DNA from: Octopus vulgaris
Taxonomy: Eukaryota
Assembly (NCBI GenBank): GCA_951406725.2
Contig: OX597834.1
Coordinates: forward strand, 11,966,001 to 12,030,000
Reading direction: 5' to 3'
Length of the DNA stretch: 64,000 nt
This document shows positions 3,211 to 45,650 of the stretch, piece after piece (position 1 is the first letter of the stretch; each line of letters begins with the position of its first letter). The position numbers and the translations under genes are program-made. Below the pieces are notes generated by a model. It saw only the letters and a list, made by a program, of their open reading frames with translations, had not been told where the DNA came from and ran no database searches.

Positions 3211-3579
3211 CACTGACAATAATGATCATAGTGGTGGTGGTGATTGTACCGGAGCGGGTGATATTGCTGATGGTCACATAGTTCTCGACCGAGATCACAG
3301 TTAGTGTCACCATGGTGATGATTATCTTCGAGACTACGCGAAAAAAAAAAAAGATTAATGCTGCAGGTGGTTCTGATGGTGAAATTTCGTTGTTGTAGGA
3401 ATGCTAGAAGTAGTAATTGTTGTACGTGCAGTAGTATGTGTTGTGCTCAAAATAGTACCTGGAATAGAAGTAGTAGCGGTAGTAGTAGCATCAGTAATAT
3501 AGCAGTGATAAGAATATTAACAATACGAAAAAGGTGAAGTATTAGAGGAAGAAGCAGAAGAAAAAACAAGAGAAAGAAC

Positions 3580-3776
3580 TAGTATTAGTGGTAGTAGTAG
3601 TAGTGAGTGTTGTAGTAGTAAGTGCAGTAGTAGTAAGTGTAGTAGTTGTAATTGTAGTAGTAGCAGCACCAGGTGCATAATCAGTAGTAGTAACAGCAGT
3701 AGTACCAGTTGTAGTAGCACCAGCACCACCATCACTAGCAGTATTATCATCATTATCACCATCATCATTATTACTA

Positions 3777-3815
<39 letters not shown>

Positions 3816-3861
3816 GTAGTAGTAGTAGTAGTAGTAGTAGTAGCAGCAGCATCAGCAGCAA

Positions 3862-3905
<44 letters not shown>

Positions 3906-4240
3906 AAAGATGAGGATAACGATGTTTATGCTGAAAGAGAAGAAGTATGACAGCTATGTCAGCGATGGTTGTAATGGTTATGATGTTGACGATCATCATC
4001 ATCATTATCATCATTAACATTGTGATGGTTATGATAATGGTGTATGTGGCGGAGGCTGATGATGATGATGGCGGCGGCGGCGATGATAACTGTGAAATTA
4101 TGAAGATGACGATGTCGACGACGATGAAGAAGGCCCTGATCATCATCCTGATGATGATCACGATGATGGTGCTGGTGGTGTTGGTGGTGGTGGTAAGAAT
4201 GATGATTACGAAGGCTATGATGATGCTACTGCTGCCGATG
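3580..4240. repeat. mosaic (TAG)n/(TAT)n/(CAG)n/(GAT)n trinucleotide tract
   Basis: Directly visible. Confidence 0.9.
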
Positions 4241-4824
4241 TTATAAAAACCAAAGCAGTTTCCATTATTGATTACCAGTGATTTATTGTCAATTTATTGG
4301 TGTTGGTTCCATCGAACTCAGCTTTTATGTGTTTTCACTCTTATTTATTGTTTCAAATTTATTGTTCTTTTCCTTTTTTTAATATTATATTATATTCAAA
4401 AGCCGAAGAAGCCAAACTGATGTTTTTCGCTCTTTTTTTAAAACTTGGTTATGTTTCCTTAAATTATACATATATTTTTTTTCTCATTTTTCCTTGCTGT
4501 TTTCATACCAGCGATATTGGAAGAGTATTAAAAAAAATATACACTCTCTCAGGGCGAGAGGAAAAAAATAACTAGACAAAACATTTTATTTAACCATTGT
4601 TTTCAGTGTAAAAACCAAGGGTGATCGATAGATAACCGTGAAACAATAAACCGAGGATTTACTCCAGACATGATGTGGGTTGCCGCTGGAGATGGAAGGT
4701 GTTGGGATAACGAGACGGTGGAAGATAGGGAAATCGAGCGAGAGGGAGAGGGACAGAGTGGGGAAAAAAGTGAGATAGACAAGAGGGTGAAATAGTTCTT
4801 GATTCATTATATTTTCAACCTCCA

Positions 4825-5249
4825 AAATGGCGGCGAGCTGGCAGAAACGTTAGCAGGCCGGGCGAAATGCGTAGCCGTATTTCGTCTGTCGTTACGTTCC
4901 GAGTTCAAGTTCCGCCGGAGTCGACTTTGCCTTTCATCCTTTCGGGGTTGATAAATTGAGTACCAGCGACGCACTGGGGTCGATATAATCGACTAAATAC
5001 TTATGTCTATCTTTGTTTGTCCGCTCTATGTTTAGCCACTTGTGGGTAATAAAGAAATGCGTATTTCGTTTGTCGTTACGTTCCGAGTTCAAATTCCGCC
5101 AGGGTCGACTTCGCCTTTCATCCTTTCGGGGTCGATAAATTAAGTACCACTTACACACTGGGGTCGATGTAATCGACTTAATCCCTTTGTCTGTCTGTCC
5201 TTGTTTGTCCCCTCTGTGTTTAGCCCGTTGTGGGTAATAAAGAAATAGG
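4825..5249 (+). mobile_element. tRNA-derived SINE family B (young form), head plus 2 tandem body units, 15-bp TSD
   Basis: A-box-like tggcagaaacgttag, B-box-like gagttcaaattcc, core gcctttcatcctttcggggtcgataaattaagtacc; direct repeat tattttcaacctcca at 4810-4824 and 5250-5264. Confidence 0.9.
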
Positions 5250-5325
5250 TATTTTCAACCTCCAGTCTTATATGTTTCATCTGCTGTCGAGTTTTTACTT
5301 TATCATGCACACAATATTTTCATAA

Positions 5326-5593
5326 GGGCCGGTTTCCCGTTTTCCTTGGCGTATAGGTTCCCCACCTGGATGGGACGCCGGTCCGTCGCAGGTGAGCTGC
5401 AAGATTTAAGAGGAAAGATTGAGAGAAAGTTGTGGCGAAAGAGTCAGCATAAGTACGCCATGACTTCCTGCCAGAACCGCGTGGAGCTTAGGTGTTTCAC
5501 TCATAAACACACACATTGCCCTGTCTAAGATTCAAACCTGCGATCTCTCAACCGCGAGTCCGCTACTCTAACCACTAGGTCATGTACCTGCAC
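5326..5593 (-). mobile_element. tRNA-derived SINE family D with V-domain-like 3' part
   Basis: Reverse complement starts gtgcagg..tgacctagtggttagag (A box), then ggtttgaatc (B box); 3' part cgacggaccggcgtcccatccaggtggggaac is shared with 50575-50640. Confidence 0.75.
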
Positions 5594-11235: not shown

Positions 11236-11686
11236 GTAAGTAGCTTGTCTGGTCAGAATACTTGAAACGAAATCTATTCTGCAAATGCACGCAGTTGACT
11301 GTGTTCTTCACGTTGTTCCATATTTTGCTTAACTCCATTTTAACTCCGATTAAGCAGACATGTATTCGATAGGGTTCATATAATTACCATCAACATTATA
11401 TAAACACAAAATGCATCTAGTTCTACCATATTTAATGTAATTTCTTACCATTTTTATTTTACTGTGGTAAGCGCTATCTATCTACAGGACAAATTTTTCG
11501 AGTTCTCAGTCAGGTAAGATGAATGAATAAAATGATCTAACTGGATGTTCAACTGATATCAGTTTCAAGCAATCGAAAATCAGGTGTTTATATTTAAAGA
11601 CATGTCCGATAAATAAAATATATAGAACAATAACGGAAAACGCAAAATCCAGAAAAGTACTATGAGGCATTTTGGAATGGTATATT

Positions 11687-44744: not shown

Positions 44745-45650
44745 GGTGGCGAGCTGGCAGAATCGTTAGCACGCCGGTCGGAATGTTTAGCGGCGGTATT
44801 TCGCCTGCCGCTACGTTCTCAGTTCAAATTCTGCAACGGTCGACTTAGACACTCATCCTTTCAGCGTCAATTAAATAAGTACCGGTTAGGCACTGGGGTC
44901 GATGTAATCCCCTCCTCCATGCTGCACTAGTGCCAAAAGTCTGAAATCCTTATCATTATTATTAAGTCGCCAAGCTGGCAGAATCGTTAGCACGCTGAAC
45001 TAATGCTTACCGACATTTTGTCCATCTTTATGTTTGTGTTCAAATTCTGCTGCAGTCGACTTTTCCTTTCATCCTTTCGGGGTCGATAAAATAAGCAGTA
45101 GTTGAACACTGGTATCCATGTAATCGACTCATCCTCCTCCCACTCCAAAATTCCTGCCCTTGTGCTAAAATTCGTAAGCATTATTATTATTATTATTATC
45201 GAAGCGATGAGATGGCAGAAGTCTTAGCTTGCCGGCAAAATAGTTAGCGACATTTCGTCTGCCATTACGTTGAGAGTTCAAGCTCCGAGAGATCAACATT
45301 TGCTTCTCACCTTTGAAGGGCCGATAAAATGAGTAGCAGTTGAGTACTGGATTCGATATAATGGACTGTCCCCCTCCCCAAGAATCCAGAGCTGTCCCTA
45401 TAAAAGAAAAGATTATTATCGTTTCCCTGAAGGCGGTTAGCTGCCAGAGCCACACGAAAAGCTCTGCAGTTAATTTTCTTTTTCTTTTTCGTGGCCTTAC
45501 GTTCTGAATTTAAGATTTCTAAATGTCTATTAACCTTTGGCGATCTCTCAAAAGTGTACCATTTGTGCATTGTGGTCGATGTGATCGATTAGTTCTTACC
45601 CCGTAAAATTTCAAGCTTTGCGTCTAATAGCAGCAGTGGTTATCATAAAT
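44745..45650 (+). mobile_element. head-to-tail cluster of four old family B SINEs with (ATT)n-type tails
   Basis: Heads near 44745, 44964, 45201 and 45430, each followed by the tcatcctttc..gtcgataaa core and a gtgccaaaa..tgaaa..attattatt-like tail. Confidence 0.8.

Follow-up and report, generated by a model that had tools for sequence, protein, structure and literature searches.

Serial insertion of a young octopus SINE into the heads of its own kin as the likely origin of headless tandem units

How a dispersed SINE comes to stand in tandem, with several bodies behind one head and a single TSD around the whole, is the question raised by the window analysed here, a microsatellite-rich stretch of 64,000 nucleotides from Octopus vulgaris. 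A preliminary description of this DNA had reported three such copies of a family termed B and had offered four possible causes, namely jumping of the reverse transcriptase (RT) between templates, rolling-circle copying of a circularised body RNA, multimeric master copies, and unequal exchange after insertion. Re-reading of the sequence found the three arrays where they had been placed, together with their outer TSDs and the fixed joint. All four internal joints restarted at the same SINE position (50/51, GTATTT), at which the head hairpin enters its 3′ arm (fold z = -2.2 for copy 3 and -1.4 for copy 1), and the extra units, by sequence reading, lacked the A-box-like motif and kept the B-box-like motif, as had been described. 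The tail motif proposed for the joints held generally, with 7 occurrences in the window vs 0.03 expected, except at one joint of copy 2, which read GTATTTTGTCTA and departed from it. Copy 2 likewise displayed the head and the three units ascribed to it, but also a partial second head and, at one joint, a short duplication of the tail that the description did not include. The features of the window are as follows.

4810..4824, forward strand: left TSD of copy 1, 15/15 identical to 5250-5264
4829..4876, forward strand: SINE head of copy 1, with the A-box-like motif and the 5′ arm and loop of the hairpin
4877..5060, forward strand: unit 1 of copy 1, with the B-box-like motif, core and LINE-type tail; likely the later insert, judging from the order of unit variants in arrays
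5061..5249, forward strand: unit 2 of copy 1, with 88% identity to unit 1; likely the resident's body
5250..5264, forward strand: right TSD of copy 1, with GG just before it that is absent from the empty-site copy
12301..12316, reverse strand: head-side TSD of copy 2, 14/16 identical to 11671-11686
12272..12300, reverse strand: partial extra head of copy 2, 29 bp, with no matching TSD after any tail
12224..12271, reverse strand: head of copy 2
12040..12223, reverse strand: unit 1 of copy 2, 184 bp
11872..12039, reverse strand: unit 2 of copy 2, 168 bp, with an internal deletion and a 6-bp tail duplication
11688..11871, reverse strand: unit 3 of copy 2, 184 bp, with the older C221 tail variant
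11671..11686, reverse strand: tail-side TSD of copy 2
31213..31227, forward strand: left TSD of copy 3, starting GGTA
31230..31276, forward strand: head of copy 3
31277..31460, forward strand: unit 1 of copy 3, 184 bp, of the youngest variant, A173
31461..31644, forward strand: unit 2 of copy 3, 184 bp, 90% identical to unit 1
31644..31658, forward strand: right TSD of copy 3, a 14/15 match to the left TSD
44745..45416, forward strand: three older sister SINEs, with the B head and core, A-type tails and empty position-50 sites, stacked head to tail

Numbering within the element follows a 234-bp reference, for which 63 full SINE copies were combined. The SINE is short (~234 bp), non-coding, dispersed and of high copy number, with 143 B tails in 1.4 Mb of spaced loci, and its copies are flanked by TSDs, as those of tRNA-derived SINEs are. 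Sequence and fold displayed A- and B-box-like motifs and paired ends, while ARAGORN and Rfam returned no tRNA match; Rfam also returned no ribozyme match, either for the window at the gathering level or for copy 3 at E up to 10. Three sister SINEs share one head and core and differ in their tails, designated B, A1 and A2, with a core divergence of 0.04 for the young B, 0.12 for A1 and 0.17 for A2. Identity of 78-93% was found between the last 25-50 nt of the SINE and the 3′ ends of several LINE families with an RT. A Pol III stop at the joint, where a C57 to T change yields TTTT, was considered and abandoned, since it was found at 21/261 joints vs 57/477 heads, with no enrichment.

The central domain of the SINE presumably resembles the Meta/Sauria domain; the hallmark of the MetaSINE/MESC superfamily is a 66-bp Meta central domain. 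A tRNA-like head would be a further likeness to the OR1/OR2 octopus tRNA SINEs and to MetaSINE/MESC. These elements are named in PMC4824008, PMC4758252 and PMC5804259, and the available parts of the three papers make no mention of self-targeting or of tandem arrays of this kind.

The sister SINEs at 44745..45416 are the kind of resident that B copies insert into. A second mode of stacking, in which the heads are kept and full-length A-type SINEs are separated by short ATT-rich spacers, was observed in the same part of the window and at loci L088 and L111.

The joint was then followed through a genome of 2.8 Gb in 227 contigs. A 34-nt pattern running from the tail into GTATTT gave 17,504 exact matches and its reversed control gave 0, which indicated that the fixed joint is a genome-wide feature. 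Finer counts were obtained from a sample of 140 10-kb loci taken at round-number positions along contigs C1-C30; the loci are spaced rather than strictly random, with some excess of chromosome ends. Among 142 complete B tails in these spaced loci, 64 ran into other DNA, 55 into position 50-53, 10 into position 17 and 8 into position 83 (one array), and 5 ended elsewhere; the 55 joints were spread over 29/140 loci, with 15 of them in L108. One B unit was present in 74 of the 93 B-bearing elements and 2 to 11 units in the other 19, and 33/169 SINE elements were filled. An older sister SINE closes thousands of arrays, with 1,878 exact chimera matches genome-wide for B-to-A1 and 136 for B-to-A2. 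The reverse order was not found in the spaced loci, where 0/122 A tails ran into position 47-56. These B-A chimeras carry most of the argument below because their parents are marked. Contigs of four other organisms also covered the whole dimer including the joint, in a family too repetitive for dating from contigs.

Several other arrangements were encountered during this census. A second hot spot was found at SINE position 17, where the tail AAAGAAATA is joined to AGAA(A/T)CG and a second head is also absent; such joints were located at L012, L014, L029, L041, L054, L064, L096 and L106. The older C221 tail variant was enriched at this position (8/15 vs 14/170 at position 50), and it ends in AG in ordinary DNA too. 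On the reverse strand of L108, a 9-mer of a 152-bp unit (726-2275), whose joint leads from GGTATT to position 83, and an 11-mer of a 184-bp unit (3304-5500) lie within 5 kb of sequence as satellite nuclei, and the same locus harbours ~8 near-identical head-to-tail copies of a different ~200-bp SINE-like repeat with (TA)n between them. At L050 (4282-5620, reverse strand), a B dimer was inserted inside a 121-bp tandem repeat derived from the SINE core. A third site is possible at GGTACTT in a SINE core, where B was inserted on the opposite strand at L104 and L299.

The joint is an insertion hot spot, in which GGTATTT at SINE position 50 serves as a fixed target of both a LINE and B. Regarding B, 96 genome matches comprised a head, GGTATTT, up to 22 bases and a second head, and 23/29 distinct head-duplicated loci that were fetched resumed at position 50 after a full B copy. 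By manual reading, the same private mutation was present in both copies of the duplication at at least 10 of these 29 loci. Shared private mutations and resumption at position 50 indicate insertion of the ordinary kind, the TSD of which begins at position 50. Regarding the LINE, screening the joint for a LINE-type tail led to 10 matches, of which 4 had such a tail, and the two that were read (L343 and L349) were broken ends of an L1/Tx1-type ORF2 joined to an A1 body. GTATT-like bases stood right after the tail in 20/20 LINE 3′ ends (the 20 best of 40 listed relatives), 18 of which continued into the SINE body and 1 of which stopped after 17 SINE bases, the last being legible no further than this. 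According to the available part of PMC4494074, a target-specific Tx1 element is one with a single target type in over 20% of its flanks; the share of the site-specific LINE, 20/20 at GTATT among the best 20 of 40 listed, lies above this threshold.

The tail of the site-specific LINE ends in AATAAAGAAATTG and that of B in AATAAAGAAATAG. The LINE copies are 80-89% alike, which makes them somewhat older than B, and those read were not intact. This family compares at 59% over 93 aa with a sister family that carries RVT_1 and zf-RVT, and full-length relatives carry PF03372; the hallmark of target-specific Tx1-clade LINEs is an APE endonuclease, an RT and a C-terminal zinc finger in an ORF of ~1,150 aa. 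No named reference RT was present among 120 listed protein-search matches, which yielded the content of domains and no name of a clade. The LINE is likely of L1/Tx1 type, and B likely borrows its enzymes. It is taken as the partner because it shares both the tail and the site with B, several other LINE families with the tail having other flanks. In a zf-RVT search, 0/40 other LINE 3′ ends (40 of 150 listed, mostly from long open frames) stood at the SINE site. B was less strict than the LINE about this site, as seen in the 64/142 tails that end in other DNA. Outside the head site B retained this preference: 13/42 resolved empty sites started with GGTA (background 0.26% per position) and about as many with TAT, and 6/42 filled sites carried G to GGTA that was absent from the empty site.

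Three leads were set aside. The first candidate partner, a LINE family from L109/L091, shared the tail, but the tail pattern had 0 matches at GGTATTTCGTC. A variant-tail pattern at the joint had 229 matches, and the 30/30 loci fetched from these were B copies only. A complementarity between tail and target was considered, GAAATA being the reverse complement of TATTTC; this was not relied on because AATAAAGAAAT also ends LINE families with unrelated flanks.

Other LINEs of this genome were also found with recurrent surroundings. An L1/Tx1-type family with open frames of 1,140 aa (L308-L315) ran into one and the same target at 8/8 fetched 3′ ends, and five of its copies stand in a row, 5-6 kb apart, in G000:C2 near 73.05 Mb. 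Further fixed flanks were common to other LINE families, in L320/321/323/337 and in L318/322/324. Another element, in L020, L036 and L055, has a B-like tail followed by (TATC)n-type sequence and is a candidate microsatellite-targeting LINE. In L109 and L171-L174, a 5′-truncated LINE was multiplied along with a histone cluster (H2B, H3, H4).

The order of events was read from the ages of the parts. In 52/59 chimeras the terminal A core was more diverged than the first B core (p = 2e-9), and the first-unit core of chimeras was close to that of B monomers (0.041-0.044 vs 0.040). The terminal unit was A-type right from the joint, T65 being found in 38/66 last vs 5/63 first units. Mismatches per site in the outer TSD amounted to 0.13-0.14 in chimeras, 0.054 in B monomers and 0.12-0.17 in A monomers, and perfect TSD 12-mers were found in 6/37 chimeras vs 17/28 B monomers (p = 0.0003). 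This count drops low-complexity flanks and pairs below 9 of 12, and when the under-9 pairs were kept, the difference between B and chimeras was weaker (p = 0.065). On these measures of divergence, the resident SINE appears to have preceded the inserted B unit in chimeric arrays. Among 49 arrays, the youngest variant (A173, divergence 0.031) was confined to the first unit in 16 and to the last in 2, and the oldest (C221, divergence 0.055) to the last unit in 12 and to the first in 0; with A173 first and C221 last, arrays would grow at the head end. The overall divergence of first and last units did not differ in 17 B-only arrays (8 to 8), and head and terminal A unit were only weakly correlated in divergence (rho 0.22, p = 0.10).

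If each B unit arrived as an insertion, the absence of its head has to be explained. In the spaced loci, 31 B units with a head were joined to a SINE, and a duplicated head was found in only 2 of them. The single head that remains reads as a mosaic running from resident to newcomer: T21 was present in the heads of 24/59 chimeras vs 9/57 B monomers (p = 0.004), and in B-A2 chimeras (n = 24) the resident share fell in the 5′ to 3′ direction from 0.77 (positions 4-20) through 0.30, 0.27 and 0.11 to 0, while in A1 chimeras it was noisy and not monotonic (0.44, 0.04, 0.69, 0.01). Since the head is mostly B-type at positions 21-49, most cDNAs must have run through the hairpin. Moreover, inserts at tail joints, where no head lies upstream, kept their own head (172 matches), which indicates that head loss depends on homology. 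The head was thus probably merged at insertion by homology, in the way proposed for R2 with upstream 28S sequence. Such pairing predicts that sharing of private variants between neighbours is confined to the TSD zone; this sharing was mostly absent, with 1/22 at positions 52-66, and the pairing model therefore needs the newcomer's strand to win usually near the nick.

The timing of head loss could be otherwise, in that the same site-specific insertion would always duplicate the head first and the extra head would then be lost by recombination or slippage between the 62-bp repeats. The head-duplicated forms (96 exact matches and the 2/31 of the spaced loci) are what this course of events would leave behind, and the heads kept at tail joints are compatible with either timing. 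Uniform crossover between tandem heads would also yield the resident-to-B gradient, so that pairing at insertion is favoured only by the age test and by the persistence of repeats. In the former, head-duplicated inserts, a set chosen by exact head patterns, were not younger than seamless ones (divergence 0.040, n = 27, vs 0.038, n = 93; p = 0.43). In the latter, direct repeats of 117-184 bp, which are longer and more similar than the heads, persist uncollapsed by the thousand in the same arrays. Both results argue against slow later deletion, which would also need a loss of more than 90% of the extra heads, and we regard it as unlikely. A different departure from serial insertion places the whole event at the RNA level, the RT jumping between SINE RNAs at the hairpin or copying a read-through multimeric RNA, and the array being inserted in one step. 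The coincidence of the joint with the hairpin arm speaks for it, as does the lack of a TTTT stop in the B majority sequence, so that transcription by Pol III could pass through arrays; the TSDs of B-only arrays are young (0.070), L146 is a dimer inside one TSD, and the G, GG or GGTA at 6/42 filled sites could come from RNA read through the joint. Some arrays probably did move whole. Chimeras, however, combine old outer TSDs and old terminal units with partly resident heads, which is not expected from a one-step jump. Template jumping or stalling at the hairpin is further contradicted by the lack of a pile-up of 5′ ends, with 1/84 B-first elements starting at positions 45-62, by the lack of A tails at the joint, and by the LINE, which uses the same base as a DNA target. 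Units also failed to cluster by array position, the nearest neighbour being at the same position in 38/90 cases, which disagrees with the multimeric master copies of the preliminary description as well; the distances of 0.0987 within and 0.0994 between positions (permutation p = 0.029) are in line with the age gradient. Assembly in one step is accordingly held to be quite improbable as the general origin of the arrays.

The two remaining proposals are decided by the relationship between neighbouring units, which was scored at 11 source-variant sites. In short arrays, 49 neighbour pairs had 0 differences in 8 cases, 1 in 8, 2 in 6 and at least 3 in 27, and in long arrays 17/41 pairs differed at 0-1 sites; among random unit pairs, 3% had 0 differences and ~10% differed at 0-1 sites. 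If the arrays came from DNA-level duplication or gene conversion of pre-existing dimers by unequal exchange, the 16/49 and 17/41 closely similar pairs are readily understood, and so are the private variants shared by neighbours along the whole unit (~20% in short arrays and 45% in long ones, more than in shuffled pairs) and the higher-order repeats of the long arrays L003 and L008. About a third of neighbour pairs, and many of those in long arrays, appear from these patterns to be later local DNA duplicates. Nevertheless, neither the first joint nor the LINE insertions nor the forms with a TSD could be created by exchange, and A-type alleles do not begin at scattered crossovers but exactly where the joint lies. 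Most neighbours are as different from each other as copies drawn at random, and unit identity in the window was not higher within arrays (0.84-0.90) than between them (0.81-0.90). As the sole cause, DNA-level duplication is contradicted, and we give it even less weight than insertion in one step; it is accepted in a secondary role. Rolling-circle reverse transcription of a 184-nt circular body RNA, in the manner of retrozymes, would account for the fixed unit length and joint and for the near-identical units of a few arrays (L122, L030, L104). In sequence, a back-joined circle would be indistinguishable from the genomic joint. Against it stand the lack of a ribozyme match and the 27/49 neighbour pairs with at least 3 differences; moreover, arrays end in the tail of another family and a circle would have no head. 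Since neighbours come mostly from different source variants, a single circle or master multimer is excluded as the main cause, and the circle is scarcely credible. The main cause of the arrays is none of the four that had been offered.

Serial insertion of the young SINE B into its kin, with homology-guided merging of the heads at insertion, is in our judgement the likely explanation as a whole, and the serial site-specific insertion, taken alone and genome-wide, is very likely. In this mechanism, B would enter a resident SINE from the same family at position 50, GGTATTT, the target identified above. The LINE protein may bind B RNA through the common 3′ tail, nick GGTATTT and reverse-transcribe there, and the B RNA seems to carry G or GGTA beyond its tail, which could pair with the target. 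The end of the cDNA, corresponding to the head (positions 1-62), would anneal to the identical sequence upstream of the nick and prime the second strand. The expected product is a mosaic head followed by the new body and the old body, all within the TSD of the resident. By landing in the resident head and pairing with the old head, the array would gain one headless unit per insertion; failed pairing would leave the duplicated head and TSD seen in the minority. The head site would be rebuilt in each round, in keeping with the observed pattern of the newest unit first and the oldest last, and some units would be multiplied later at the DNA level, as the patterns of long, higher-order arrays suggest.

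A broader reading can be put forward only tentatively, at somewhat below even chances. The SINE would constitute a self-templating system, acting as its own landing pad with an RNA homologous to both sides of the nick; each round would rebuild the site, rewrite the old promoter with the sequence of the newcomer and add a unit, giving tens of thousands of age-ordered arrays in which the history of the family is recorded, and seeding satellites. Homology on both sides, from target bases past the tail and from the head at the 5′ end, would in that case allow seamless, directional integration.

Little is understood of how the 5′ ends of non-LTR insertions are joined, and most of the basis for the homology model comes from R2 in rDNA. 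The octopus arrays would provide tens of thousands of natural trials of this step, with marked parents (a young insert and an old resident) and homology-free controls (tail joints and ordinary DNA). They would also represent a route from dispersed SINE to tandem array with retrotransposition as its first step, as well as a pairing of LINE and SINE whose parasitic partner supplies a safe landing site. In practice, such arrays confuse the building of SINE consensus sequences and age estimates because the parts of a single element can differ greatly in age. A SINE with its own head as target was not described in the literature searched, with Repbase and subscription journals outside the search.

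R2 is an autonomous, ribozyme-bearing element of rDNA with another type of endonuclease. Unlike in R2, the homology in the octopus would be provided by the 5′ end of the SINE itself, and insertion is into a dispersed repeat and yields a tandem unit. In the part of PMC3774820 that was available, R2 RNA with upstream 28S sequence gave over 80% precise 5′ junctions and ~10% direct duplications. The likeness lies in a cDNA carrying sequence from upstream of the target, which was proposed to anneal there, and in duplications with extra nucleotides as a minority (PMC3774820).

Shared targeting has its parallel in the crocodilian SINEU-3 with Tx1-Mar and in Xenopus Tx1 in Tx1D, where, according to the same available part of PMC4494074, a SINE and a Tx1 LINE use one fixed target in another repeat. 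As in the SINEU-3/Tx1-Mar pair described there, SINE and LINE share a target in the octopus and sequential insertion gives tandem SINE copies. In contrast, the crocodilian target is a DNA transposon and the tandem copies sandwich a TSD, whereas B targets its own head, the site is rebuilt, and most inserts have neither a second head nor a visible TSD. Active L1-Tx1 families are listed in a recent annotation of octopus repeats, which, in its available part, is silent on targets or arrays (PMC13282606).

The products resemble the squamate SINE-derived satellites, sSat, for which the accessible part of PMC10702118 invokes unequal recombination and, briefly, same-locus insertion. There, too, tandem units are shorter than the SINE and range from few to many, and long arrays are more uniform. 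The sSat definition asks for at least 4 uniform middle monomers, more than the window's 2-3-unit arrays contain, and this number is reached or approached at L108, L122 and L008. The fixed target, partner LINE and age polarity of the octopus arrays are absent from the description in that part of PMC10702118. Non-LTR retrozymes, as far as the available part of PMC7761336 describes them, are also dispersed, TSD-flanked multimers of a short non-coding unit, but they carry hammerhead ribozymes and derive from one circle, whereas the octopus units are of mixed origins and without a ribozyme match. By analogy with these systems, the octopus SINE would combine shared targeting of the Tx1-Mar/SINEU-3 kind with 5′ joining of the R2 type, yielding arrays that resemble sSat.
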